A stretch of 64,000 nt of DNA from Candidatus Nomurabacteria bacterium (GTDB lineage Bacteria; Patescibacteriota; Minisyncoccia; Phycocordibacterales; UBA918), in NCBI GenBank assembly GCA_020632015.1, contig JACKGI010000002.1:27121-91120 (forward strand), written 5' to 3'. The notes beneath the pieces are model-generated. The model saw nothing but the letters and a program-made list of their open reading frames with translations, searched no databases and was not told the origin of the DNA. Below, piece by piece: positions 27,198 through 51,866 of this stretch. Positions within the stretch are counted from its first letter, which is position 1, and every line of letters starts with the position of its first letter. The position numbers and the translations under genes are program-made.

Positions 27198-28520
27198 ATG
27201 GCAAAACCGCTCATTATAGCTAGGGATCTTTCGATTATTTACAACAAGGGTAAATCAAACGAATTTAAAGCGCTTTCTGGAGTCAGTACTGACATTTTTG
27301 AGGGTGAATACATCATTCTCTTTGGTCCCTCAGGGTGTGGAAAATCAACCCTCATGTATTCTATTCAGGGTTCTTTACCTCCGGGTGAAGGTACACTTTT
27401 GATTAAAGGAGACGACGTGTACTCGTACCCGCCTGCTGAGCGAGTCTACTTTCAGAGGTATGTGATGGGTATTATTTTCCAGTCATTCAACCTTATTCCC
27501 TCACTTTCTGTGTTAGACAACGTGGCACTCCCGATGATTTTTTGTGATGCTGACAAAACAACACGTGATAGAAGGGCTCAGTCCCTACTTGATCGTTTTG
27601 GAGTAGGGCATGTATCACACAAGATTCCAGCCATGCTTTCTGGAGGTCAGCAACAGCGTGTCTCGGTATCGCGTTCCATGGTTAACGATCCAAAGATTTT
27701 GCTAGCCGATGAGCCAACCGGAAACCTGGACTCGGTTTCAACCCAACAGGTAATGGATAAAATTGATGAAATTAATACCTTTGATAGACGAACAATTATC
27801 ATGGTTTCCCACAACGCCGCACACTTGAGCTACGCTCACAGAGTTTATTACCTCAAAGACGGAAAAGTGGTACGTGAAGTTGTAAATCCACAGAGAAAAC
27901 AAATTAAGCCAGTTAGAGAAGGGGAGACTATTGTTACTGAACTCGAGCAATTGGCAAGGTTGTTCCCTTATGATTCAGTGGAGACACTTAGAGTAAAAAG
28001 CTTGGTTAACTACTTAACTCAAGATTATTCATTCGACCAGTTAATGAGACTTGAAAAAGCTACCTCATTGTTTATTCAAGGAAAAATTGATAGAGATTCC
28101 TACATCAAAAGCCTTATTCTTCCTCTCGAAAGAGGCGGTGTTCAGGTGGATGAGAAAGAAGCAAGGAGAATGTCCACTATTGCGCAAAAAATGATTACGC
28201 AAGGAGATGATATTAGACGTTATCGAGCAAGAAAAGATAATGACGGTATCTTCTTTAGTCAGCATAAGCTAGCAGAAAGAATGAAGGAGCACTTGATTCA
28301 TGGTCACAGAATTAAGCTTTCAAAGGATCAGGACAAGAACATGGTCGAAATGATAGCCGACAGAGTAACTGGTGTGATAGAAGATGAGGAGATGAATGAA
28401 CGTATGATGAAAGGAGTCCGTTCAGGAGGTATGGCGTTGAGTGAGAAAGAAGCGGACGATTTGACTCGATACTTTGAAAAAGTGATTGCTCAAGGAGTTG
28501 ATGTTAACTATAAAAACTAA
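27198..28520 (+). CDS. ABC transporter ATP-binding protein (MacB/LolD/FtsE-like NBD) with a ~210-aa C-terminal helical extension
   Basis: The first ~225 aa carry Walker A GPSGCGKST, signature LSGGQQQRV, Walker B ILLADEPT and H-loop MVSHN. A non-ABC extension follows, with an internal repeat (ERGGVQVDEKEARRMSTIAQKMITQGDDI vs RSGGMALSEKEADDLTRYFEKVIAQGVDV). Confidence 0.9.
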   Translation: MAKPLIIARDLSIIYNKGKSNEFKALSGVSTDIFEGEYIILFGPSGCGKSTLMYSIQGSLPPGEGTLLIKGDDVYSYPPAERVYFQRYVMGIIFQSFNLIPSLSVLDNVALPMIFCDADKTTRDRRAQSLLDRFGVGHVSHKIPAMLSGGQQQRVSVSRSMVNDPKILLADEPTGNLDSVSTQQVMDKIDEINTFDRRTIIMVSHNAAHLSYAHRVYYLKDGKVVREVVNPQRKQIKPVREGETIVTELEQLARLFPYDSVETLRVKSLVNYLTQDYSFDQLMRLEKATSLFIQGKIDRDSYIKSLILPLERGGVQVDEKEARRMSTIAQKMITQGDDIRRYRARKDNDGIFFSQHKLAERMKEHLIHGHRIKLSKDQDKNMVEMIADRVTGVIEDEEMNERMMKGVRSGGMALSEKEADDLTRYFEKVIAQGVDVNYKN

Positions 28521-28522
28521 TC

Positions 28523-29737
28523 ATGAGAATTCAAGATCTTGCACAACTTTCAACTAGAATGTTCAAAACAAACCCGCTCCGTACATGGCTGACTATTTTA
28601 GGTATGGGAGTTGGAACAGGAGCCGTGGTAGTTTTGGTGGGTCTAGGTTTCGGACTTCAGCAAATCATTTTGGAACAAATCGTTTTTGGAGAGACTCTAC
28701 TTTCACTGGGTGTATCTTCAACTGGAGCACAAGGATTACGTCTTACTCCAGAAACAGTTATTGATTTTGAAAAGAATGAAGCTGTCTTGGATGCTGCTCC
28801 CTTGGCAAAATTCCCAGCTCTTGTGACCTACAAGGGTCTAACGGGTAATATTTTTGTGCAAGGAGTTGAACCTCCGTATTTGAGGTACGCAGGAGTAACA
28901 GCTGTGGCCGGTACTGTATTTGCTGAAGAAGATATTGGAGACTCTAACTCAATTATGCTTTCGCCAGCAACCCTTAAGCTTTTTGGTATACCAGATGAAG
29001 AGATTAAAGACTTTATTGGACAGAAGGTGTCCTTACGACTTTTAGTGCCAGCCGATGATGGTACAGAAAATGTAAACGAAATCTTGATTGATAAGGAATA
29101 CATCGTACGTGGTATCACAAAAGAAGAAGGGGTGTTAAACGCCATGATGATGCTTCCCGAGCTAAGAAATTATGTTGGTATAGAAGAATATGAGCGCATT
29201 CAGGTGCGTGTAGATACAAACGAAAACCTTCCGTTAGTAGAAACTAAATTGATTGAAGAAGGCTATCGAGTAACAGCACTTTCAAAAACAGTCGAACAAG
29301 CTTCCAAGATTTTCCAAGGGATTCAGGCTGTGTTGGCAACATTCGGTGGTATTGCGCTGGTGGTGTCAGCTATTGGTATGTTTAATACAATGACAGTTAC
29401 CTTGCTTGAACGTACAAAAGAGATTGGAATCATGCGTACAATCGGCGCTTCTCCCAATGACGTAAAGTATCTTTTCGTATCTGAGTCAGTGGTTGTAGGC
29501 TTTCTTGGAGGGGTCAGTGGTATTTTGATGGGAGTCACTCTCGGTATAACCGTAAATATTTTCTTAAATATAGTGGCGGGACAATTTGGCGGTCAGTCTG
29601 TGACCCTGTTTTCTTTCCCGATTAATTTCCTAGCTTTCATTGCTGTTTTCTCTGCTGCGGTAGGGTATTTAACAGGTATTTTCCCAGCACGCCGTGCTTC
29701 AACACTTAATCCTTTAGACGCTATTAGATACGAATAG
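28523..29737 (+). CDS. ABC transporter permease, FtsX/MacB type (1 TM + large extracytoplasmic domain + 3 TM)
   Basis: The ATG lies 2 nt after the ATPase stop. N-terminal TM LTILGMGVGTGAVVVLVGLGFGL is followed by a ~230-aa non-hydrophobic domain, then three C-terminal hydrophobic helices with the FtsX-type motif LLERTKEIGIMRTIGAS. Confidence 0.85.
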   Translation: MRIQDLAQLSTRMFKTNPLRTWLTILGMGVGTGAVVVLVGLGFGLQQIILEQIVFGETLLSLGVSSTGAQGLRLTPETVIDFEKNEAVLDAAPLAKFPALVTYKGLTGNIFVQGVEPPYLRYAGVTAVAGTVFAEEDIGDSNSIMLSPATLKLFGIPDEEIKDFIGQKVSLRLLVPADDGTENVNEILIDKEYIVRGITKEEGVLNAMMMLPELRNYVGIEEYERIQVRVDTNENLPLVETKLIEEGYRVTALSKTVEQASKIFQGIQAVLATFGGIALVVSAIGMFNTMTVTLLERTKEIGIMRTIGASPNDVKYLFVSESVVVGFLGGVSGILMGVTLGITVNIFLNIVAGQFGGQSVTLFSFPINFLAFIAVFSAAVGYLTGIFPARRASTLNPLDAIRYE

Positions 29738-29838: not shown

Positions 29839-31701
29839 ATGTTGTACAACAGGGAAAACCTACCAAACTATGTTCGAACCGCAGGGAAGATAACCGTGGT
29901 TACGGCCTTGTCCGGACTTCTCGTCTTCCTCGTCGCTTTCGTGTTTGATTTCAGCGCTCAAGAACTGAGTAAAGTATCTGCAGCCGGAAACGCGACTACT
30001 ACGCTAACTGTATTGAACACACCTCCAGTGTTCACACTCAACCCATATGAAGTTATCGGGTCATCTACTTCAACACCAACCAACTCTGGTGACGTTCTGC
30101 AGTGGTCTGCTATCGGTACTGACGCCAACGCAGCTGACTACTTCCTGCTTGTATGTAGTACAGACTCTGCTTCAGCAACGCCTAAAACAAATGCTCCTCC
30201 TGAGTGTGGAGCTGGAATACAATGGGGAGTCTCTGCGACTACAACTAGTGGAGCTCTAGCAACAGTGTCTACAACTACTGCTGAGTGGGGTACTGGAGAT
30301 TTCTCTGAAGTAAACCAGTGGTATGCGTGGGTGTGTGATGCTAACCCAACCGACCCAAAGTGTAGTGTTATTCCTGAAACAGGAGATTACGCAACCAGCT
30401 CATCTCCATTCCACATCAATAACAGACCAGTTTTTGATATTAATCTAACTAATGACGGACCAGTAGACCCAGGTGGAGTTATCGCATGGAATTCTACTTC
30501 TTCAGACCCAGACACAGTTGATGCTGAAGATGAAATTTACTTAGTTATCTGTAGCTCAAACTCAGACTACGATCCAAACCTAAACACTTGCCCGTCAGAT
30601 TTCTTAGCTTCAACTACGTTAACTGGAATCCTTAGTGACGTAGCTGCAACTCTTACAATTCCTGCTATTCAAGTAGACGATACATATCCTGCTTATGGAT
30701 ATATTGTAGACGAACATGGACACGAAGCCCTAGGCAACGGACAACAAGCAAACTACATTGTAAGTAACGTAGCTCCTGTTGTCGTTGGTGGCGATATCAT
30801 CCTGAACGGTGGTATTGACATGTCTTTGACAAATGCAGACGCAGGAGAAACTACTGGCTTTAGTTTGACATTCAAAGTTAGCGATGCAAACAGTTGTGAA
30901 AACTTCAGTGCTGGAGCAGAGATTACAGGATATAGAGCAACGGTATTCCGTTCGGATATTGGGACAACTACCTGTGATGGAAGCGGGGCAAACTATAATG
31001 CTAACAATTGTTACGACAGTGGTGTTGCGACAACCACATGGAATCTCGTATGTACTCCTGATGCTTGTGGCGGTACCGGTGATGCCGATATTGACTACAC
31101 TTGTTCATTCCCGCTTTGGTTTATTGCAGATGCAACAGATGCTGGTCCGAATACCCCAGCTGCACAAGAGATTTTGAACTGGTCTGCCGGTGTATACGGA
31201 ATTGATGACAATGCTGCGGTTGGCTCAATGGCAACAGCTACAAATGGTGTTGATGTAGAAAGTGCTGCATATATTGATGTTGGTTCCAGTCAGATTGCAT
31301 ACGGAGGAGTAGAGCCTGGTAATGCGACTGACTTGGTAGCTACTTCAACAACAATCAATATCGGAAACACAGGATTAGACCAGGACTTGCAAGGATCATC
31401 AATGTGTAACACATATTCGTTATCAACTCCGTGTCCGGGTTCAGCCACCTCTACAGTAGATGCTAGTGAACAAAAATTTGCTTCAACCACGATGACTTAC
31501 GGTAACGTACTAGCTACAAATCTATCTTCAACAAGCCCAACTCACTTAGAGCTTGATGTAGCTAAGTCAACATCAACAACGACCCCAAACAATAAGCTGA
31601 CTTATTGGGGAATCAATGTACCATGGACAATATCATTCGCTGGTAGCTATACAGGGCTCAACACTTTCACAGCCATCGTTGCTGAGCCAGGAGACTGGTA
31701 G
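29839..31701 (+). CDS. Secreted/anchored Cys-containing Ig-like repeat protein; its C-terminal half is paralogous to the giant protein's C-terminus
   Basis: N-terminal hydrophobic segment VVTALSGLLVFLVAFVF. The C-terminal ~300 aa (from about 30793) align with the giant's last ~250 aa: NGGIDMSL/NNGIDISL, NNCY, QKFASTTMTY/QKFATTTFDY, LTYWGINVPW/IYWGIAVPFG, GLNTFTAIV/GVNTFTAIS. Confidence 0.8.
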   Translation: MLYNRENLPNYVRTAGKITVVTALSGLLVFLVAFVFDFSAQELSKVSAAGNATTTLTVLNTPPVFTLNPYEVIGSSTSTPTNSGDVLQWSAIGTDANAADYFLLVCSTDSASATPKTNAPPECGAGIQWGVSATTTSGALATVSTTTAEWGTGDFSEVNQWYAWVCDANPTDPKCSVIPETGDYATSSSPFHINNRPVFDINLTNDGPVDPGGVIAWNSTSSDPDTVDAEDEIYLVICSSNSDYDPNLNTCPSDFLASTTLTGILSDVAATLTIPAIQVDDTYPAYGYIVDEHGHEALGNGQQANYIVSNVAPVVVGGDIILNGGIDMSLTNADAGETTGFSLTFKVSDANSCENFSAGAEITGYRATVFRSDIGTTTCDGSGANYNANNCYDSGVATTTWNLVCTPDACGGTGDADIDYTCSFPLWFIADATDAGPNTPAAQEILNWSAGVYGIDDNAAVGSMATATNGVDVESAAYIDVGSSQIAYGGVEPGNATDLVATSTTINIGNTGLDQDLQGSSMCNTYSLSTPCPGSATSTVDASEQKFASTTMTYGNVLATNLSSTSPTHLELDVAKSTSTTTPNNKLTYWGINVPWTISFAGSYTGLNTFTAIVAEPGDW

Positions 31702-31783: not shown

Positions 31784-32749
31784 ATGACGTACATGAATTT
31801 TATTTCACGAAAGTTTTTGCTAGTTCTTTTTTTGCCTGTGCTTTTTTTTAGTACGGGTATTTACAAAGCTGAAGCAGGATTTGGTATTACTCCTCCCTAT
31901 GTTAGAAACACTAGCCTAACTCGTAATTCTACTTACGAGCAGCAAATTCTTTTGGTGAGAGGTGATGCGAACATTGCACAAAAGGCTGAAATTATTATCG
32001 ATGCTCCAGACATTGAAGGTTGGATAGAAGTTCTTGAAGGCGAAGAAATTAAAATGCCAAAAGGTACTCAAAAGGTACCAATGACTGTACGAGTAACAGT
32101 TCCAGACAATGCTCAGTTTGGCGAGTATAAGGGGTCTATTAGAATCAGAACGCTTCCTGATGACGATCAGGTGGCTCAAGGAGCAGTAAGTATCTCTCTT
32201 GGTGCATTGGTGGATATTGATTTGTTAGTCATAGATAGACAGATTAAGGACTTTAGAGTGCGTAAGATTTCAGCGCCTGACCTCAACGAAGGAAACAAGG
32301 TTGGTTGGCTATTTTTCCCGGGAAAGATTAATTTTGAAATGTTAATTGAAAATACTGGTAACGTAGACATCGCTCCTTCAAAAGTAGAGTTTAGAATCTT
32401 TGATCGTTCAGGAAAGGTTATGCTTGAGGAATCAAAGAATATTGGAAGAGTTACAAAAATTAAACCCTACGCCACGGAAAGTGTTATTGCAAAAATACCG
32501 ACTAGACTACCGGCGGGTGGCTACATCGCTAGGTATAAGGTATTCAATGGGGATGAGATTAAACAGGAAGGAGACATAACTCTTAACATTTTACCTGAAG
32601 GTAGCCTTCAAACAGCTGGCTTTGGCTTTATCGGTCTTTCTATAGCACATAAAATCTCAATCCTTTTGCCAATATTTGCTGTAATAATTGCTGCGCTATA
32701 TATCTGGCGTTCACGAGCTCAAGTTCGTGTACGTACCCGAAGAAAATAG
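31784..32749 (+). CDS. Membrane-anchored double beta-sandwich protein (signal peptide, two ~120-aa beta-rich domains, C-terminal TM + basic tail); architecture resembles DUF916/DUF3324 proteins of WxL loci
   Basis: Signal peptide FLLVLFLPVLFFSTGIYKAEA/GFG. First domain motifs W(I)EV..(G)..I..P.G....P..V.V.VP.....GEY.G.I.I. Second domain motifs (L)IEN(T)GN(V)....(V)EF.I(F)D..G... C-terminal TM ILLPIFAVIIAALYIW is followed by RSRAQVRVRTRRK. It is a paralog of 47869..48885 and of the first 300 aa of 48851..50485. Confidence 0.8.
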   Translation: MTYMNFISRKFLLVLFLPVLFFSTGIYKAEAGFGITPPYVRNTSLTRNSTYEQQILLVRGDANIAQKAEIIIDAPDIEGWIEVLEGEEIKMPKGTQKVPMTVRVTVPDNAQFGEYKGSIRIRTLPDDDQVAQGAVSISLGALVDIDLLVIDRQIKDFRVRKISAPDLNEGNKVGWLFFPGKINFEMLIENTGNVDIAPSKVEFRIFDRSGKVMLEESKNIGRVTKIKPYATESVIAKIPTRLPAGGYIARYKVFNGDEIKQEGDITLNILPEGSLQTAGFGFIGLSIAHKISILLPIFAVIIAALYIWRSRAQVRVRTRRK

Positions 32750-32750
32750 T

Positions 32751-33860
32751 ATGCGCAATTATCTATACCTTCTTTTCTTATTTGTCTTTGTAGCAGTTCC
32801 TCTTGCTTCTTTTGCGCAATCTACAAATATCGCAACCACAACACTAACAATAAGTATTTGTGGTAATGAGATTGTTGATGGCGGTGAGGAGTGCGACGTG
32901 CTTGGCGAAACAGGAGTCTATAGCCAAACTATTGCTGGTAGACAATGTACCGCGTCGTGTAATTTTGGTCCTTATTGTGGTGACGGAATTCTTCAGACGG
33001 CTTTTGCTGAGGAATGTGATGACGGCAATAACGACAATGGGGACTTCTGTTCTGCTATTTGTAAAATTGAACCAGCTGGTTCTGGCGGTGGTGGTTCTAG
33101 TGGTGGAGGAACGTCAGGAAGAGGGGGAAGTACTGTTGACTTAGGAGATACGATAATAAATGTAATAGGTCGTGGGTATCCGCTCAGAACAATTAATTTT
33201 TTGCTCGATACTGAATCTGTCGGAACTGTTCGTTCAGACAGTAGTGGAAGGTTTGAATTTTCTACAAATGCGTCTCCAGGTACAGCTACTCTGGGTATCT
33301 GGACCACAGACGTCGATGGTACACGCTCTATCACTTTAAATAATACTTTTGATGTAACTCAGGGTGCTATAACAAATCTTAACGGAATAATTCTACCGCC
33401 AACTATTTCTGTGCCAAATCCTAACGTTAACCCTGGTGATACTATTTTGATTTCTGGTCAGTCAATTCCGAGTTCGAGAGTTGAAGTTCATGTCGACAAT
33501 AGTACTATCGTTGAGACTGTAACTGCTGGAACTGATGGAAAATGGAGTTTGAGTTTTGACACAAGTAGAGTGTCTGTAGCTCAGCATACTCTGAGAGCTA
33601 GAACATTGACTGGCAACCCACCGTTACGAACTGAAAGTAGTTTCAGTACTTCAATCCAATTGTTCGTTGGTGTTGACGGTCAAGCCACACTACCCTCTGA
33701 CCTAAACAGAGATGGCTTCATTAACCTTATTGACTTTTCTATTCTTATTTTTTGGTGGCAAACAAATGGTGGCGATTCAGATCCACCAGCTGACATAAAC
33801 CAAAACGGAAGAGTTAGTCTCGAAGATTTTTCTATTCTTTTGTTCAACTGGACAGGATAA
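32751..33860 (+). CDS. Secreted protein: Cys-rich (myxococcal-type) repeats, Gly/Ser linker, Ig-like domains, C-terminal dockerin-like module
   Basis: ATG at 32751 (1 nt after the previous stop) gives signal peptide MRNYLYLLFLFVFVAVPLASFA/QS. Repeats CGNEIVDGGEECD and CGDGILQTAFAEECDDGNNDNGDFCSAIC are present. The C-terminal region has two EF-hand-like loops, DLNRDGFINLID and DINQNGRVSLED, each followed by FSIL (about 33699-33851). Confidence 0.8.
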   Translation: MRNYLYLLFLFVFVAVPLASFAQSTNIATTTLTISICGNEIVDGGEECDVLGETGVYSQTIAGRQCTASCNFGPYCGDGILQTAFAEECDDGNNDNGDFCSAICKIEPAGSGGGGSSGGGTSGRGGSTVDLGDTIINVIGRGYPLRTINFLLDTESVGTVRSDSSGRFEFSTNASPGTATLGIWTTDVDGTRSITLNNTFDVTQGAITNLNGIILPPTISVPNPNVNPGDTILISGQSIPSSRVEVHVDNSTIVETVTAGTDGKWSLSFDTSRVSVAQHTLRARTLTGNPPLRTESSFSTSIQLFVGVDGQATLPSDLNRDGFINLIDFSILIFWWQTNGGDSDPPADINQNGRVSLEDFSILLFNWTG

Positions 33861-34126: not shown

Positions 34127-35293
34127 ATGATCAGAACGTCAAAATCGTTCTCAATACTCCAAGCAACGGCAGCGATTGTAGCCCTAACCATTCTTCTATG
34201 GTCTGCGGGTCTACCATCACTACAATTTGTAGAAGCTGCAAATGTCACCACACTTAGCGACACGCTCACAGACTCTGGTCCGGGCGTAGTCTCAGATCAC
34301 ACCATCTCGTTTGTAACTCCAACTGGAGTTGCTAACGGTGAGACAATCACGATTGATTTCTCAGACGGTCCATTCGTAGTTGGCTCAGTTGATGAAACTG
34401 ATGTCGACGTATTGGATGACACAAACGATCTCGTTATTGCAGCAGACTGTTCAGGTTCGGATGAAGCAAGTGCTGTCTTTTCAGGAACCACCCTTACTAT
34501 CACACTATGTGCTGGTGATGGAGCGTTTATCCCTTCTAATGGTACAACTACCATTAAAATCGGTTCAAATGCTACATACGGTGGAGATACTGGAGATGCA
34601 GACGCTCAGCTAACCAACCCGAGTGCTGGCTCTTACGAGATTAATGTAACTGCTGGTTCAGCTGATACTGGTTCAACAAGAGTTGCTATCGTGTCGGCGG
34701 TAACAGTTACTGCTTCTGTTGATACACTTTTTACATTTACTGTAGCAGGTGTGGCAGGAGGTCAAACTGTTAACACAGCAGACGTCACTGATGGTCCAAC
34801 AACAGCTACAACCATTCCTTTTGGAGAGCTTGTAGCTGATACAGCAAGTACAACAGCGCAAGACTTAACAGTTGTTACAAACGCCTATAATGGTTTTGTC
34901 GTAACTGTGGTATCTGATGGTCAACTTGTCTCAACTAATGGTGCAGATATTGATAGTTTCCGAAATGGAAATGATCAGTCAACACCAGTAGATTGGGAAG
35001 CACCAACTCCTGTTTTAGGAGATGAAGATACTTATGGTCACTGGGGTCTTACTTCAGATGATGATGCACTAGCTGGTGCTGCTGATCCCTTCGATGCAGG
35101 AGGAGCAGGAGGTCGTTATGCGGCCGCTTCAACTACACCTGTAGAAGTGTTCAGACACACAGGACCAACAGATGGAACAGTAACTGGCGAGGGTACCACC
35201 CGAGTTGGTTACAAAATTGAAGTTACAGCTTTGCAAGAAGCTGCTGACGACTACACAGCTACGCTGACATACGTAGCAACACCAGTGTTCTAA
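34127..35293 (+). CDS. Secreted 388-aa beta-rich protein, probable major structural surface subunit; C-terminal module shared with the 2,060-aa protein
   Basis: Signal peptide MIRTSKSFSILQATAAIVALTILLWSAGLPSLQFVEA/AN. T/V/G/D-rich, Cys-poor beta-type sequence. The C-terminal ~200 aa align with the end of the 41670..47852 product and finish DDYTATLTYVATPVF (vs GDYTTTITYIAVPVF). The gene is bracketed by its own leader and a strong terminator. Confidence 0.85.
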   Translation: MIRTSKSFSILQATAAIVALTILLWSAGLPSLQFVEAANVTTLSDTLTDSGPGVVSDHTISFVTPTGVANGETITIDFSDGPFVVGSVDETDVDVLDDTNDLVIAADCSGSDEASAVFSGTTLTITLCAGDGAFIPSNGTTTIKIGSNATYGGDTGDADAQLTNPSAGSYEINVTAGSADTGSTRVAIVSAVTVTASVDTLFTFTVAGVAGGQTVNTADVTDGPTTATTIPFGELVADTASTTAQDLTVVTNAYNGFVVTVVSDGQLVSTNGADIDSFRNGNDQSTPVDWEAPTPVLGDEDTYGHWGLTSDDDALAGAADPFDAGGAGGRYAAASTTPVEVFRHTGPTDGTVTGEGTTRVGYKIEVTALQEAADDYTATLTYVATPVF

Positions 35294-47600: not shown

Positions 47601-47852
47601 ACTGGCTGTTCTGGTTCTGCTGTAAGCTGTTCTGGATACCACACAACTGACGCAACATTGGAAGGAGGGTCTGGTAGATTTGCGCCGACAGATTCATACG
47701 CTGCCTTAAGCACATCTCTTAGTGAGATTATGTATAGCTCAGTCCCTTCTGTTGATGTTGAGAACATAATTTACAGACTCAGGATAGGTGCCTTACAGCC
47801 AATTGGTGATTACACAACTACGATTACTTATATAGCCGTACCAGTCTTTTAA
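41670..47852 (+). CDS. Large (2,060-aa) secreted modular surface protein: BNR/sialidase-like propeller region, duplicated ~350-aa unit, four W-R-N-D-D..Y-C-F-R modules, C-terminal module shared with the 388-aa protein
   Basis: Uninterrupted 6.2-kb ORF. The alternative start at ATG 41709 gives MRKLVVMLLITTFVF..LLFQAFA/AEV. An Asp-box-like TTNGGTSWG lies near 41960. The repeats and the C-terminal ...GDYTTTITYIAVPVF are read from the translation. Confidence 0.9.
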   Translation: MFFLEHKKSGFLCMRKLVVMLLITTFVFTDFDTILDWPLLFQAFAAEVTIDDTPSTNGLSHTAVQPTTVFISDQVGYKFYRDGSGGGGTNGTCVYKKTTNGGTSWGTETIVDSQTDCEAIVVWYDKWTPGDAGSYIHIATMDSGDDDLWYNRLDTTSDTLLMGSNPTSTSLTQSAMSITAATANHSMTKGTDGTLYMSISDNTDRFVVSCSSGCGTGSNWTEVGDGTFMDLDEDITLLLPLDGGNILLINRDISANDIRSKVWNGSSWSASWSTVDANAVESGAYDIQMSAVRSPVTGDIYLAYIADANNFTVADHDIRLAKYSGGSWSNLPDLITDDTRGLTSISLTVDENTDTVYVAYSARTTLATADSANVYWATSTSAMTSWGAEQGPVNTSSGNFYGVSFNYSSVQRLYVTWFGAVVDDLFGETIADVAPATTVDVSGTQETEVRASTTDFYVGGKFVITEESASRNVTDIVITENGSVDASTGLNNIKLRYDLDTSSPYDCASESYGGGESQFGSTDTNGFSGADGTSAFSGSVSVSPTQAMCVYVVMDVLKEAADSSDIEIEIANPSTDVLVSGGVTAIPETVKLISGTTNVVDSDLTQTHFHWRNDDGNETGATSRTAGVEDVPLLALQQEVPRRLRFGVSNEGSTSSLPTTLRLEYALNTSSCDLATGWTDVDAVNDDWNMYDSTFVTDGTDTTDIGIGIGGVSNENSVLLSPNGGQKDTSSTVGPLTLLPTNWVETEFSIVASTSATEGNTYCFRLTNNGEELPVYTNYPRATIAADVKVSATSSQISTVDIPTPDFYVGGKFSIIENESSRNVTSITITENGTVDGTTGVENIRLFYDLDTSFPYDCASENYVGGEAQFGTASSSFSSANGSSTFTGSVAITTTQAMCVYTVLDVTSSANNGETLDISINSGSQDVLVSGGGSVGPLTALDITGSTTLAGGIVTLTNYHWRNDDGTETGATSATGGSEDTPLTDFSIGSPIRLRIGLSNEGGTSSVPQRYGLEYGIKSSTCEDIAVWTDADGGGVSWSMHDSGFLTNGEDTTDIAEVNGGVSDPNSSFLSSNGGVRDTESFSATTTLTETEYVDLEYSITSTFDTPYESTYCFRVTQNGSPLLQYDVYPEISIEAKRDFKIQRGTTTVSGTSGVTLTAGVDYVAPSASTSAFVRITNAHHTGAGKDTLGGNQNSDDYTVYILNPGNIETSFTLMRDTDSINNSYVAWEIIEYVGPVGGDNEIIVRDQSVVSYSNSQLVATGTAVSGVVDDNDVVVFITGQMHNGGNRSESFAQQSTSFWASTSSEPVFTRGATGNNSGNVSYSVVEFTGLNWKIQRVEHLFTAVGTTQTENITAVNSLSRTFIHTQKRYDGAISLADYGHDVWLSSIGAVSFFLEPSATTTGVNHYSVAWVVENTQTSAGQMVVQRSNGNTIAGGPEPVAISVPITTHVNATNNASIFLMTSLDSTGNQFPRVLMGATIVSTSTYQIWRSESANSASYRTEIVQWPAADLAVRQNYYRFYVDNDALLPTDPWPAGATDLGENTSVGALDEPLADGDVVRIRMSAKVTNATLPAGLLETKLQYALRDTTCSAVTVWSDVGSPASGEIWRGYDASGVTDGDSLSGNPPTGGDLLISISDRAGRYTETGPSAANQYAVYDGEDIEYDWIIEQNGASQRKTYCFRMVKSDDTQLDGYFHYPEIRTEGFTPVVDSWRWYDDETNETPTTALAAENIAPTNVSKGNAVKLRVTLDEIKNLSQINARFKLQFAEEADFSDVQDVVASTSCIASSVWCYYDGAGIDNDVITSSVLSGSDSCVAGVGAGCGTYNESSEYYNGFTHGASNDTEYEFTLVYTNVTGKFGKVYYFRLYDIANDEVVVASSTNPTLAGESTSLVFSVDGVDANTTIAGIVTDATTTATSLDFGLLPFDTDVEVAQEITVNTNATEGYQVYKYVDQQLLNSYSDQIQPITGTNAVPVSWGTGCSGSAVSCSGYHTTDATLEGGSGRFAPTDSYAALSTSLSEIMYSSVPSVDVENIIYRLRIGALQPIGDYTTTITYIAVPVF
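42970..45075 (+). repeat. In-frame tandem duplication (~1,053-bp period, two copies) inside the 2,060-aa gene
   Basis: DFYVGGKF(V/S)I.E..SSRNVT.I.ITENG.VD..TG..NI.L.YDLDTS.PYDCASE.Y.GGE.QFG is followed by (T/N)(H/Y)(F/Y)HWRNDDG.ETGA...YCFR(L/V)T.NG. GATTTTTATGTTGG starts at 43032 and again at 44085. DNA identity is roughly 70% by eye in the best-conserved stretch. Confidence 0.75.
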
Positions 47853-47868: not shown

Positions 47869-48885
47869 GTGAAAAGAAACTTATTTAGAAATCTTTTAAT
47901 CCTGACAGCAATTTTTTTGCCTGCATCACTTACCTTTGCTGGCGAATTTACAGTCAGACCGTTTCTGATTGATGTCACAGCAGAACCGAGAGAAACGATA
48001 ACTGAAACAGTCCAACTTACTAATGATAGTGAGTATAGAAAGTATGTTGTCTATGCAACAGTAAATGAAATATCGGTTGATAAAGAAGGAGAAATTAAAG
48101 AATTTGTCTCTCCAGTGATGACTGACAGAACAAACACTGTAACTAGTTGGATAGAAGTAAAGAGGGGGAGGATTGAAATTGAACCAGGCCAAAAGGCAGA
48201 AATTCCTGTGGTTCTTAGGGTCAATCCTTTTGCAGAGCCAGGCGAATATCATGCTTTTATCGGTTTTGTGCCGGCGCCAAATAGGCCAAAGGCAGAAAGT
48301 ATTGCGATGTCTGGAGAAGCAGATGGGGTAGTTATTAAGATTACTGTTGAGGATAAGAGGGAAGACAGTATGAAGATTTCAGGCTTCATAATAAATCGTT
48401 TTATAACAGATGATAGTAAGCGTGAGGTCGATGTGGTGATTGAAAATACTGGCGATCTCCCATCAGCACCAATGGGAGAAATCATATTCTATGATTCAAC
48501 AGGAGTTGAAATTGATTCGGCCCCTTTCAATTCTGACGGTGTGGTTATTGCTCCAGGAGAAACTGCTACTCTAAAAGGGTTTGTGCCTGTCGACAAGACG
48601 CTTGGGCGATTTAAAGCGAACCTTTCCCTTAAGTACGGCGAGAATCAAAGAGCATCACTGTACGACACTACAACATTTTTTCTGATGCCTCTAAACTTAC
48701 TATTACTGATATTCGGTGGTATTTTATTAGGAGCGATTATTGTTGCGTTGTTATTTAGAAAAGCATTCATTACGCCGAATACAGATGCAGATGATGGTGA
48801 CGCTGTTACAATGTATGTAAAAGAAGGTCACGAACCAAACCCACAAGATCATGATATCGACCTTAAAAACGTTAATAAAGAGTAG
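47869..48885 (+). CDS. Membrane-anchored double beta-sandwich protein (paralog of 31784..32749); DUF916/DUF3324-like architecture
   Basis: GTG start. Signal peptide LLILTAIFLPASLTFA/GE. Motifs SWIEVKRGRIEIEPGQKAEIPVVLRVNPFAEPGEYHAFIGF and VVIENTGDLPSAPMGEIIFYD. C-terminal TM LLLLIFGGILLGAIIVALLF is followed by a charged tail. Confidence 0.8.
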   Translation: MKRNLFRNLLILTAIFLPASLTFAGEFTVRPFLIDVTAEPRETITETVQLTNDSEYRKYVVYATVNEISVDKEGEIKEFVSPVMTDRTNTVTSWIEVKRGRIEIEPGQKAEIPVVLRVNPFAEPGEYHAFIGFVPAPNRPKAESIAMSGEADGVVIKITVEDKREDSMKISGFIINRFITDDSKREVDVVIENTGDLPSAPMGEIIFYDSTGVEIDSAPFNSDGVVIAPGETATLKGFVPVDKTLGRFKANLSLKYGENQRASLYDTTTFFLMPLNLLLLIFGGILLGAIIVALLFRKAFITPNTDADDGDAVTMYVKEGHEPNPQDHDIDLKNVNKE

Positions 48886-50485
48886 GCCTCTTCAAGCGGG
48901 GTTAGTCCTTTTTTCTATATTTATTTTTTCATATCAGTCTGTCTCTGCACAGTCAGCTCTTTCACTGAGTGTATCCCCAACAATTTTTGACATGTCTGCA
49001 AACCCGACTCAGAACTGGACAAGTTTTGTAAGAGTGATTAATCCTAATCCGTACGAAATAAGGGTCTATGCAAATGTTGTGAACTTCGCGCCTCAAGGTG
49101 AATTAGGGCAGGGTAAATTTGTCCCTTTAATTGAAGAAGAATCTAAAGGAAAAACTATAGCGGAATGGATAGACGTGACAGCAGATGAAATTGTTATCCC
49201 TCCGGAGCAAACTATAGAAGTGCCTTTTATTGTAAACGTACCTGAAGATGCTCCTCCGGGAGGTCACTTTGCCGCGCTACTAATCGGCACTAAGCCACCA
49301 AAGGAAGATAAACAAACTCAGGTTATTACCTCTCAAATCGTTACCACTCTTTTGTTCCTGCGTGTAACTGGAGACATAGATGAGTCGGGAAATATTCGCT
49401 CATTTAGAACGACAAAGAAAATTTTAGAACAACCGCAAGCTACTTTTGAGCTTAGGTTTGAGAACACAGGGAATGTTCATATCCTCCCGCAGGGTGAGAT
49501 AAGAATTACAAATATGTGGGGTCAAGAAAGAGGCGTTATCCCTATTAATAGATCATCGCTGTATGGCAATGTTTTGCCAGATAGTGTCAGAAAATATGAT
49601 TTCACTTGGACAGGTGAATGGTCACCTTCAGATGTTGGGAGATATACAGCTATAGCAAGTCTAGCCTATGGAGAAGACGGAAGGAAATTTTCGTCTAGCG
49701 AAGTTACTTTTTGGGTTATTCCATGGAAGATATTATTGTCTGTTCTACTGGTCTTGGTAGGATTCGGATTATTGTTTACTTGGGCAGTTAAGCTGTATAT
49801 CAAAAAGATGCTTCTTATGGCCGGGGTGTCACAGAATTTAGGAGCGAAGCCCCTTGTTTCAGTCAAGACAAAGCGGAGAGTTTCAGTAGTTGCACCGATT
49901 GAGGAAGGAATGCTAGACCTTCGAGAACAGTGGCAGGAAACATCAAGTCTAAGAGAAAGGGTCAGCACACTTACATCATTTGTTGGAACATATAAAGTAT
50001 TTTTTGGAGTGGTATTCCTAGTAATTCTGTTTATAACACTCATTTTTGCTTATATTCAGTCTGCCTCTGTGTCAGAGAGGGCGTACGACGTTACTTTCGA
50101 TGGTTTAAGTGAAGAAGTGAAGATTTCTTCTGAGGATGTAAAGTATCAAGAGCTTAAAGAGCAGTCTGTTTATGATGCTAGTACTGAGCCAGATTTGTCA
50201 CTACCGAAAATTCAAATAGTAAACAGAAGTGGGGTAAGTGGTCTAGCTGCCGACTTAAGGTTGAAGCTTGAATCTGATGGTTATCAAGTCATCGGCATAG
50301 AAAATGATTTAGGTTCAGCAGAAAAAAATACTGTTATTGTCTATGATCCCGAGTTGTCAGAAGAAGCATTAGTTCTAAGTCAAAAAGTTTACGGAGCACT
50401 ATTGTCTGCCTTTTCTGATGAGACTGATAGCGAAGCACTGATAACTATATATGTAGGCGAAGATCTTCAAAATGCTGTACAATAA
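48851..50485 (+). CDS. Double beta-sandwich protein + TM segments + C-terminal LytR_C-like domain
   Basis: ATG at 48851 overlaps the previous gene by 35 nt; no later start precedes the signal peptide LVLFSIFIFSYQSVSA/QS. Motifs EWIDVTADEIVIPPEQTIEVPFIVNVPEDAPPGGHFAALLI and LRFENTGNVHILPQGEIRITN. TM helices lie near aa 295-315 and 370-395. The C-terminal KIQIVNRSGVSGLAADLRLKLESDGYQV...TVIVYD...ITIYVGEDL (about 50208-50470) matches the LytR_C pattern. Confidence 0.8.
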   Translation: MISTLKTLIKSRPLQAGLVLFSIFIFSYQSVSAQSALSLSVSPTIFDMSANPTQNWTSFVRVINPNPYEIRVYANVVNFAPQGELGQGKFVPLIEEESKGKTIAEWIDVTADEIVIPPEQTIEVPFIVNVPEDAPPGGHFAALLIGTKPPKEDKQTQVITSQIVTTLLFLRVTGDIDESGNIRSFRTTKKILEQPQATFELRFENTGNVHILPQGEIRITNMWGQERGVIPINRSSLYGNVLPDSVRKYDFTWTGEWSPSDVGRYTAIASLAYGEDGRKFSSSEVTFWVIPWKILLSVLLVLVGFGLLFTWAVKLYIKKMLLMAGVSQNLGAKPLVSVKTKRRVSVVAPIEEGMLDLREQWQETSSLRERVSTLTSFVGTYKVFFGVVFLVILFITLIFAYIQSASVSERAYDVTFDGLSEEVKISSEDVKYQELKEQSVYDASTEPDLSLPKIQIVNRSGVSGLAADLRLKLESDGYQVIGIENDLGSAEKNTVIVYDPELSEEALVLSQKVYGALLSAFSDETDSEALITIYVGEDLQNAVQ

Positions 50486-50515: not shown

Positions 50516-50995
50516 ATGAGTCAAAAATCTATAATCTTAACCGTTGTACTATTTGCATTGTTGATAGTGGGGATGTTCATTTATGCGCACCTAAAAAGCT
50601 CTGAGTTGGAGGTAGTTACAGTCACTCCATCGCAGGAGGAAGAAGCACCTGTGCTTTATCCTGATATCACTAGAGTCGACGCTAAACACTTCAACATAGA
50701 TGGTAAGCACACATTTGTTGGAGAAATAGTGTTTCCTTCACCTTGTGATTTGTTAGAAACTGATGCAATTGTTATGGAATCTTATCCAGAGCAAGTCATT
50801 CTTGATTTTTCCGTCATTAATAATTCAGACTCTTGTGTCGAGATACCAACTGCTCAAAGGTTCAAGATTGATGTCGTTGCTTCTGAGAACGCAAGTTTTA
50901 AAGCGAGGTTTATGGGTAGGGATATTGAGCTCAATCTAATACCTGCAGCTGAAGGTGAATTCCCAGATGATTTTGAAATATTCATAAAAGGATAG
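50516..50995 (+). CDS. Hypothetical N-terminally anchored small protein
   Basis: 159-aa ORF with TM IILTVVLFALLIVGMFIY, then a beta-type domain with two Cys. I recognised no family. Confidence 0.6.
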   Translation: MSQKSIILTVVLFALLIVGMFIYAHLKSSELEVVTVTPSQEEEAPVLYPDITRVDAKHFNIDGKHTFVGEIVFPSPCDLLETDAIVMESYPEQVILDFSVINNSDSCVEIPTAQRFKIDVVASENASFKARFMGRDIELNLIPAAEGEFPDDFEIFIKG

Positions 50996-50996
50996 C

Positions 50997-51557
50997 GTGG
51001 ATTTCGTAAAAGAACACAAGATAATATTTGGTTTTATTTTTGTAGTCATCCTAGCTTCAGGTATTTATACGTGGAGCGTCATCTCCAAGAATAGAAACGC
51101 AACTACAGAAATTAGCCCAGCTATGCGCTCATTGTCTGTTTCTGGTGACGACACGCCTTATACGGACTTAAATGGAAACTCAGTGTCGCTGTCTGATTTT
51201 GTTGGTCAGGTTCTAGTGGTTAATTCATGGGCAAGTTGGAGTCCTGCATCGGTAAATGAACTAAAAACCTTGTCAGTGATTACAAACGAATATAAAGACA
51301 GTTCAGTAAAAGTGATAGCTATTAATCGAGGAGAACCGGCTAATACGGCAAAGTCATTTCTACAAACCTATAGTATTAGTGAGGATGTAATGCTTGTACT
51401 TGATTATGACGATAGGTATTTTGCTTCGATTGGTGGATATAACATGCCTGAAACTGTGGTGTATGACACAAAAGGAAATATCTTCCATCACGAAAGAGGA
51501 GCCATGTCTGAATCAAAATTAAGAAGAATCATTTCGCAAGCAATGGCAATACAGTAG
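50997..51557 (+). CDS. Membrane-anchored thioredoxin-fold protein of TlpA/ResA type lacking both active-site cysteines
   Basis: GTG start 1 nt after the previous stop, preceded by AAAGGA. TM IIFGFIFVVILASGIY. VLVVNSWASWSPASVNELK aligns with the F-W-x-x-W-C-x-x-C-x-x-E motif of TlpA/ResA proteins but reads W-S-P-A-S. The protein contains no Cys at all. Confidence 0.7.
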   Translation: MDFVKEHKIIFGFIFVVILASGIYTWSVISKNRNATTEISPAMRSLSVSGDDTPYTDLNGNSVSLSDFVGQVLVVNSWASWSPASVNELKTLSVITNEYKDSSVKVIAINRGEPANTAKSFLQTYSISEDVMLVLDYDDRYFASIGGYNMPETVVYDTKGNIFHHERGAMSESKLRRIISQAMAIQ

Positions 51558-51838: not shown

Positions 51839-51866
51839 GGGTCAAGCTATAAGCTTGACCCTTTTT
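51839..51866 (+). terminator. Rho-independent terminator
   Basis: GGGTCAAGCT (51839-51848) / AGCTTGACCC (51852-51861) form a perfect 10-bp GC-rich stem with a 3-nt loop, followed by TTTTT. Confidence 0.85.

Follow-up and report, generated by a model that had tools for sequence, protein, structure and literature searches.

Overlapping genes for two putative WxLIP-like membrane anchors, one ending in a LytR_C domain, beside a very large secreted protein in Patescibacteria

In a 64,000-nucleotide (nt) stretch of a Candidatus Nomurabacteria genome (contig JACKGI010000002.1, positions 27,121 to 91,120; called the window here, all positions being given in its own numbering) we have analysed two overlapping open reading frames (ORFs), ORF1 and ORF2, that encode paralogous membrane anchors directly after the gene for a secreted protein of 2,060 amino acids (aa). 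Based on fold, profile, topology and gene-order evidence we lean towards reading ORF1 and ORF2 as a translationally linked pair of divergent WxLIP homologs that dock large surface proteins. The two genes and their overlap are as follows.

47869-48885, + strand: ORF1, the short anchor, GTG start, 338 aa
48851-50485, + strand: ORF2, the long anchor, ATG start, 544 aa
48851-48885, + strand: 35-nt overlap of ORF1 and ORF2; ORF2 is read in the +1 frame with respect to ORF1

Within ORF1, the ATG of ORF2 straddles the codons for the invariant His328 and Asp329 (gat cAT Gat). A preliminary description of this DNA had proposed both the 35-nt overlap and the kinship of the two proteins as membrane anchors, and both are borne out: ORF1 and ORF2 align from the signal peptide to the first transmembrane (TM) helix with 26% identity over 283 aa (BLASTP E 9e-19), and the profiles of the short- and long-anchor families align over 289 columns with an hhalign probability of 99.6% (E 1.7e-24). 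ORF1 is 100% identical to the NCBI entry 'hypothetical protein H6781_01230 [Candidatus Nomurabacteria bacterium]', which comes from a metagenome-assembled genome (MAG). The parts of the two proteins are these.

ORF1, + strand: signal peptide, aa 1-24; two immunoglobulin (Ig)-like sandwiches; TM helix, aa ~273-296 (48685-48756); cytoplasmic tail, aa 297-338
48851-48949, + strand: ORF2 signal peptide, aa 1-33; K6, K10 and R12 make the n-region basic, a hydrophobic core follows, and the cleavage site lies between VSA and QS
48950-49288, + strand: ORF2 beta-sandwich 1, aa 34-146, related to DUF916/WxLIP_PGBD
49289-49339, + strand: ORF2 conserved loop of low model confidence, aa 147-163, with T147, T160 and Q162 invariant
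49340-49717, + strand: ORF2 beta-sandwich 2, aa 164-289, from the AlphaFold2 model, in the position of the WxLIP host-binding domain
49721-49789, + strand: ORF2 first TM helix (TM1), aa ~291-313, from hydropathy and model
49790-49990, + strand: ORF2 cytoplasmic loop, aa 314-380, 67 aa, net charge +5, with the conserved motif VSVVAPIEEGMLDLR
49991-50059, + strand: ORF2 second TM helix (TM2), aa ~381-403, from hydropathy and model
50060-50206, + strand: ORF2 acidic extracytoplasmic linker, aa 404-452, with a conserved ER.Y(E/D)V strand
50207-50464, + strand: ORF2 LytR_C domain, aa 453-538

In both anchors the sequence shows a basic n-region followed by a hydrophobic core and a cleavage site of the A-x-A type, and the signal-peptide pattern MIST...A(Q), with S following the cleavage site, is kept in the relatives of ORF2. 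The AlphaFold2 model of ORF2, built on 66 relatives, has a predicted local distance difference test score (pLDDT) of 81.8 and a predicted template modelling score (pTM) of 0.71. Its N-terminal half comprises a signal helix, sandwiches at residues 45-146 and 164-289, a long TM helix (292-323) and a disordered stretch (324-348), and its C-terminal half two helices leading into TM2 (382-405), a small beta-beta-alpha element and a confident alpha/beta LytR_C fold; hydropathy finds the same two TM segments. The loop at 314-380 contains 11 Lys or Arg against 6 Asp or Glu, and the linker after TM2 contains 4 against 12. In the 66 relatives the net charge is positive for the loop in 66/66, and negative for the linker in 63/66 and for the LytR_C domain in 66/66. 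Because of this charge bias, the positive-inside rule predicts the ectodomain to lie outside, the loop inside and LytR_C outside again, and judged by that rule alone LytR_C would be extracytoplasmic. Both the succession of TM1, a loop (put there at ~60 aa), TM2 and a C-terminal domain behind the double sandwich, and the placement of that last domain outside rather than in the cytoplasm, agree with what the preliminary description had read.

The ectodomain of ORF2 has a mean column identity of 56% and many invariant residues among its relatives, and the two anchors have in common a cytoplasmic motif, (I/L/M)DL(K/R), just after TM1. The 42-aa tail of ORF1 carries at its C-terminus the conserved motif V.MYV.(E/D)GHEPNPQDHDIDLK, and the short-anchor tail (V.MYV.DGHEPNPQDHDIDLK) aligns with the long-anchor loop (VSVVAPIEEG..LDLR). 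In the window the two motifs read V.MYV.(E/D)GH.PNP.DHDIDLK in ORF1 (48757-48882) and VSVVAPIE.G.LDLR in ORF2 (49790-49990), and relatives without LytR_C retain the ORF2-type motif as well.

The pair and its position are widely conserved. In a species-level survey with one genome per GTDB species at least 285 genomes encode a relative, and in the 80 loci that were analysed the long anchor is present in 79, with the short-anchor paralog immediately upstream in 77 of those 79. The gene just upstream of the pair encodes a protein of ~1,400-2,500 aa that ends in ...Q.AG.Y.T.I.Y.A.P.(F/Y/H) in 72/74 species loci. In all lineages examined the kept gene order begins with proteins of ~225 aa, ~247 aa (cohesin/dockerin-like), ~600 aa and ~2,050 aa, after which come the two anchors, short before long, and then a membrane protein of ~159 aa and a redoxin. 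A recurrence of the ORF2 fusion beside the same large protein in other genomes, which the preliminary description had wanted checked, is therefore seen both in synteny and in the species-level loci. The closest 120 database relatives are all ~540 aa with full-length coverage, and some of them, from Nomura-, Kaiser-, Pace- and Parcubacteria, are named at NCBI 'LytR C-terminal domain-containing protein' or 'DUF916 domain-containing protein'. Searching 1.84 billion cluster representatives with a profile gave 9,728 clusters with E<=1e-3, of which 1,243 reach E<=1e-30. Three loci (L035, L036 and L037) have typical Patescibacteria gene content in MAGs labelled Acidimicrobiales, Patiriisocius and Azotimanducaceae, which is probably binning contamination.

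WxLIP proteins consist of a signal peptide, a peptidoglycan-binding domain (PGBD), a host-binding domain and a TM helix in 337-365 aa, and their genes lie next to those of one small and one large WxL protein; a WxLIP strand is predicted to complete the WxL sandwich (PMC10599100; PMC9772566). Searched with Foldseek against the PDB, the ORF2 model has as its top match the E. faecium WxLIP 9i1y_A (E 1.2e-11), with 9i25_C, bound to a long WxL protein, at E 2.3e-11, and both are aligned over ~270 columns that span both domains. At the sequence level PF06030 (WxLIP_PGBD/DUF916) matches 58/66 ORF2 relatives at E<=0.01 (best 2.3e-9). For a comparison of profiles we used seven annotated 'DUF916 and DUF3324 domain-containing' proteins from plasmids of Enterococcus, Lactiplantibacillus, Listeria, Latilactobacillus and Lactococcus, to which signal peptide and first domain of the long-anchor family together align with an hhalign probability of 93.9% (E 1.6e-7); the first domain alone gives 89%. 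In searches of the PDB the A1 profile gave a weak match to EfmWxLIP1 (E 0.2), the A2 profile gave no match and the single ORF2 sequence nothing meaningful, and a scan of NCBIfam produced no useful match. The short-anchor family is more diverged from WxLIP than is the long-anchor family, and in the anchors the WxLIP motif NQIDKxxxYFDLK is reduced to ...T(I/L)F(D/E)M.... From the fold matches and the profile homology of the first domain we conclude that the ectodomain is probably a distantly related, divergent WxLIP (DUF916-type) homolog. The preliminary description had recognised a double-sandwich anchor, and two beta-sandwiches are indeed present, but it had missed their probable kinship with WxLIP/DUF916. 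The conserved loop between the sandwiches (residues 147-163, of which 151-160 have pLDDT <50) is a candidate donor strand by its likeness to the WxLIP hairpin of PMC10599100.

Two secreted proteins of the neighbourhood share a C-terminal domain and are the presumed partners of the anchors.

41670-47852, + strand: 2,060-aa secreted protein, the presumed cargo, with a conserved C-terminal domain in its last ~190 aa (~47280-47849) that ends in ...GDYTTTITYIAVPVF
34127-35293, + strand: 388-aa secreted protein, the 'small' partner, with the same ~190-aa C-terminal domain (~34700-35290; BLASTP E 7e-15 against the C-terminus of the 2,060-aa protein)

The 388-aa protein is 100% identical to NCBI 'H6781_01265' of a Candidatus Nomurabacteria MAG and is more conserved than its neighbours, with 61-79% identity over the top 120 relatives. 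Its model (pLDDT 84) matches MSCRAMM-type adhesins and BslA in Foldseek, and BslA/YweA 'bacterial hydrophobin' structures are among the fold matches with ~155 aligned columns. It may be an abundant structural surface protein.

In the reading that we favour, each anchor would be exported through its signal peptide, display its two Ig-like sandwiches outside the cell and be held by its TM helix, and ORF2 would then cross the membrane again by its second helix to end in an extracytoplasmic LytR_C. The ectodomains would dock the C-terminal domain of the 2,060-aa protein, and probably that of the 388-aa protein, by beta-strand complementation, as the E. faecium WxLIP does with WxL, and the large proteins would in this way be held non-covalently on the cell. 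Short and long anchor may act as a heteromer, that is as a two-subunit, co-expressed membrane dock, with the conserved overlap serving to keep the two subunits co-expressed, and LytR_C might position or oligomerise this dock in the envelope, one way being contact between its own LytR_C and that of wall-assembly proteins.

Several results weigh against such a dock. In ORF2 itself PF06030 (aa 44-142) scores 18.6 bits, under its cut-off of 27.3, and in the ORF1 family 4/56 members match WxLIP_PGBD, weakly. Template modelling scores (TM-scores) of the ORF2 model to WxLIP are modest at 0.45-0.47, with a root mean square deviation of ~8.7 A, and those to PapD-like chaperones are similar. DUF3324 (PF11797) was found by Pfam in the second sandwich of 0/66 and 0/56 relatives of the two families, and hhalign gave it a probability of 7-14%. 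On the side of the cargo, Pfam detected no WxL domain (PF13731) in the 2,060-, 388-, 620- and 592-aa proteins, in the C-terminus of an 8,158-aa giant protein or in other neighbours, nor in any of the 53 sequences scanned from the 388-aa family. When the C-terminal domain of the cargo was compared by hhalign with nine WxL domains from seven Firmicute plasmids, the probability was 1.5-2.7%, and no WxL chain is in the Foldseek top 50 of the 388-aa model. Finally, the literature describes LytR_C as a domain "of yet unknown function" (PMC11481543). As to the cargo domain itself, neither Pfam nor hhalign nor Foldseek supports its membership of the WxL family, and we rejected that assignment. Its end (...AG.Y.T.I.Y.A.P) and that of WxL (...Y.TT(I/L)TW.L...P) can be aligned co-linearly at two WxL motif regions, below significance, and its terminal motif resembles the distal WxL motif with Tyr for Trp, a homology that is not significant and is only a lead.

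The fold matches also admit a second reading, in which the pair are membrane-tethered PapD-like assembly chaperones that transiently cap the C-terminal strand of the 388- and 2,060-aa proteins for polymerisation into a fibre or surface layer. Caf1M, CfaA, CsuC and DraB are the next-best fold matches (E 7e-10 to 1e-8), with target-normalised TM-scores (0.50-0.56) equal to WxLIP. The cargo motif always stands at the extreme C-terminus, as in pilins, and the strongly conserved 388-aa protein has adhesin- and pilin-like fold matches. The anchors are thus similar to PapD-like chaperones in their two-Ig-domain fold, in the terminal position of the partner motif and in that strand complementation is a plausible binding mode. 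However, chaperones of the chaperone-usher type are soluble, periplasmic proteins of diderm bacteria that work with an usher, whereas the anchors are TM-held like WxLIP, ORF2 and its relatives have no PapD match in Pfam, no usher-like gene lies in the locus or elsewhere in the window, and the signal at the sequence level is specific to DUF916. We therefore consider chaperones an improbable explanation, if one that deserves to be kept in mind beside the WxLIP-like dock.

The C-terminal domain of ORF2, which the preliminary description had called LytR_C-like, is a genuine LytR_C (PF13399), matched over profile positions 3-85 of 86 with E 1.8e-9 and 38.8 bits, where the cut-off is 22.2. Pfam finds it in 66/66 ORF2 relatives scanned, and in the model the region has an alpha/beta fold with pLDDT ~90. 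Against the PDB, the A1 profile gave a weak match to the M. tuberculosis LytR_C structure 2m5y (E 0.14), and no LCP catalytic domain was seen among the ORF2 Pfam matches at E<=1 or in the scan of the relatives. In the best 150 clusters of the profile search LytR_C is present in 89 and absent in 61, and the relatives without it (~420-460 aa) keep TM1, a loop with P..G..DLR, TM2 and an ER.YEV tail. Since these relatives keep the rest, we take the core of the family to be the WxLIP-like module with its TM hairpin, and LytR_C to be a frequent outer accessory and not the anchor. That a short anchor simply fused with a separate TM-LytR_C gene is not clearly supported, as TM2 and the ER.YEV tail are already present in the relatives without LytR_C; gain or loss of LytR_C on a two-TM protein fits better. 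The preliminary description had further proposed that the fusion links the platform to cell-wall polymers. Direct data on LytR_C are confined to LytR_C-to-LytR_C protein contacts, of the LytR_C-only protein VirR with LCP ligases (PMC11832169), and with these contacts being between proteins, with no LCP domain in ORF2 and with two TM helices already anchoring it, that link does not stand as worded, although a direct attachment to wall polymers would be plausible. The paralogous anchors, overlapping start, LytR_C domain, topology and recurrence of the earlier interpretation do stand, and the statistics behind the observed genes and domains lie well outside what chance would give.

The TM-linker-LytR_C layout of ORF2 is also that of LytR_C-only proteins, which in mycobacteria (VirR/Cei) affect wall integrity and permeability and bind LCP proteins via LytR_C (PMC11832169). 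Together with the weak profile match to 2m5y, this would allow ORF2 to be an envelope-homeostasis factor of the VirR/Cei type, with Ig domains unrelated to the large neighbour. We think this distinctly unlikely, considering that ~40% of the nearest cluster representatives lack LytR_C and keep all else, that LytR_C is absent in 12/79 species loci in which the neighbourhood is still kept, and that the large protein is linked to the anchors in 72/74 species. Just as unlikely in our view is that the anchors are themselves adhesins, whose second sandwich binds a host or partner cell with no need of a cargo. DUF3324 has been proposed to bind host surfaces (PMC10599100) and Patescibacteria are thought to be largely episymbiotic (PMC11665869), but the ectodomain is highly conserved across lineages with presumably different partners, and the tight linkage to the large protein would be left unexplained.

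An in-frame stop lies 33 nt 5' of the ORF2 ATG at 48851 and the next ATG, GTG or TTG is codon 48, past the signal peptide, so that ATG 48851 is the sole start ahead of the hydrophobic N-terminus MISTLKTLIKSRPLQAGLVLFSIFIFSYQSVSA and the QS that follows its cleavage site. In the alignment of relatives the columns A33, Q34, S40, S42, P43 and T44 are at least 90% conserved, which indicates that the stretch upstream of Met48 is translated; residues 34-62, which span Met48, include …SALSLSVSPTIFDMSANPTQNWTSFVR. In five independently assembled lineages the ATG is at the same spot within the conserved tail of the short anchor, ...HEPNPQDHDIDLK (in one of the five the gene-caller start is further upstream and the equivalent start is Met13), and the start sits in the short-anchor tail motif ...DHDI(D/N)LK. 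Using for each locus the start closest to the signal peptide, we find an overlap with the short-anchor gene in 72/78 species-level loci. It is mostly 20-38 nt long in LytR_C-bearing members and mostly 4 nt (ATGA) in those without LytR_C (loci L046, L071-L072, L077 and L081-L090), and therefore long overlap and LytR_C extension co-vary. The upstream stop, the conserved residues before Met48 and the frequency of the overlap all support the overlapping ATG as the true start, as had been proposed. A Shine-Dalgarno-like motif at a usable distance precedes 1/26 window genes and is uninformative for the overlapping start; from the same count, translation initiation in this genome appears to proceed largely without Shine-Dalgarno pairing.

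At NCBI the same gene is held as a 497-aa 'LytR C-terminal domain-containing protein' that begins at Met48 (window 48992) and has no signal peptide (MCA9359751.1, MCB9810203.1, MCB9818149.1), and other NCBI/JGI relatives (P0009, P0016, P0093) are likewise N-terminally truncated. A start at Met48, with neither overlap nor signal peptide, is very hard to credit, because it falls inside the first conserved beta-strand region behind the conserved residues named above, the signal peptide with its A-x-A site before Q is conserved among relatives, the overlapping start position is kept in those 72 species and the Ig domains would be without an export signal. Since models from Met48 lack both the signal peptide and the first strand, the start at 48851 is the better one.

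The rest of the neighbourhood adds further detail. The genes form a tight array on the + strand, with a gap of 16 nt between the 2,060-aa gene and ORF1 and of 30 nt after ORF2, and the first strong terminator-like hairpin is at 51839-51861; between the 2,060-aa gene and 51839 there is no terminator-like site with a score near that of the strongest one. The two genes that follow appear to be co-transcribed with the anchor pair, and a third anchor lies further upstream.

50516-51557, + strand: 159-aa membrane protein and TlpA-like redoxin, from family scan and synteny
31784-32749, + strand: third anchor paralog, 321 aa (E 3e-6), directly after the 620-aa protein

In most lineages checked the anchors are followed by this single-TM protein, with two conserved-looking Cys, and the redoxin, and the two may serve extracytoplasmic disulfide handling for a Cys-containing large protein. 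The C-terminus of the 620-aa protein (29839-31701) matches that of the 8,158-aa giant protein (1068-25544) with E 2e-17, and this domain is of the type ...YWGI.VP...G.NTFTAI. The 620-aa protein and the third anchor look like a second cargo-and-anchor set with another type of C-terminal domain. Between the 8,158-aa and 620-aa genes lies a MacB-type ABC transporter (27198-29737; ABC_tran; MacB_PCD and FtsX), whose ATPase has a C-terminal extension of ~200 aa without a family match. Weak cohesin and dockerin/EF-hand-like matches in small secreted proteins (38952-39695 and 32688-33860; Dockerin_1 at 28.3 bits in a 390-aa protein) hint that this island of surface proteins may also use a second principle of assembly, of the cohesin-dockerin type. 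Minus-strand ORFs of 108, 78 and 125 aa lie antisense to conserved coding sequence of the region.

Patescibacteria have surface proteins of very large size, by which they are assumed to attach to partner cells. To the question of how these proteins are held on the cell the locus offers a testable answer, namely a putative WxLIP-like membrane dock that is encoded directly after a large surface protein, and it would extend the WxLIP/DUF916 family well beyond Bacillota, uncoupled from recognisable WxL domains, while giving the uncharacterised LytR_C domain a new context. It also reveals a recurrent start-site error at NCBI by which this gene family loses its signal peptide, in this genome and in others. 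Going further, we can tentatively picture a lineage-wide, Trp-less counterpart of WxL display in Paceibacteria-type Patescibacteria, a picture that as a whole is rather doubtful. Here the ~2,050-aa adhesin and the 388-aa protein would dock through their shared C-terminal domain, a cryptic WxL analogue ending in ...AG.Y.T.I.Y.A.P.F, on a heteromeric receptor of short and long WxLIP-like anchors, and the (I/L/M)DL(K/R) motif and LytR_C would couple the complex to the cytoplasm and to wall-assembly machinery. If true, the giant surface proteins of these episymbiont-like bacteria would for the first time have a defined mechanism of anchoring.

Among known systems, the LytR_C-only proteins (M. tuberculosis VirR Rv0431 and Cei Rv2700; Streptomyces Vnz_18655) and the LCP-LytR_C ligases are similar to ORF2 in having a C-terminal, extracytoplasmic LytR_C behind a TM helix and linker. 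ORF2 differs in that it is without an LCP catalytic domain and in that its LytR_C sits on a display module of WxLIP-like type. The literature searched does not describe this pairing, and we also found nothing in it that ties DUF916 or LytR_C to Patescibacteria. In databases this anchor type stands under generic domain names, but it is undescribed in that literature. With the WxL clusters of Firmicutes the locus shares a small and a large protein with a common C-terminal domain beside a two-Ig anchor (PMC9772566, PMC10599100); a WxL gene cluster is however defined by at least one WxLIP and at least two WxL proteins within four genes (PMC10599100), and the adjacent proteins here are without a detectable WxL domain. 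The closest likeness is to the WxLIP proteins themselves (CscA/Duf proteins of Lactobacillales and Listeria), which are likewise built from a signal peptide, two Ig-like sandwiches in tandem and a TM helix, are of similar size to ORF1 (338 aa against 337-365 aa; ORF2 is an extended version of the same module), and are encoded directly beside genes of secreted proteins, which in WxL clusters are the partners of WxLIP, one small and one large with one common C-terminal domain. ORF1 also fits the single C-terminal TM helix of WxLIP (273-296, with a 42-aa tail), and ORF2 has its first helix in the same position, to which it adds the loop, TM2 and LytR_C, that is a TM hairpin and an outer domain. 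They differ in that the hosts of WxLIP are Bacillota and here Patescibacteria, and in that the anchors described here are two adjacent paralogs from overlapping genes with a conserved cytoplasmic motif, have partners without a detectable WxL domain and no LPXTG gene nearby, and carry a second domain whose sequence does not identify it as DUF3324. We see here a variation on the known WxLIP type: a WxLIP-like anchor that occurs in Patescibacteria in two copies, with overlapping genes and a LytR_C tip on one of the two.

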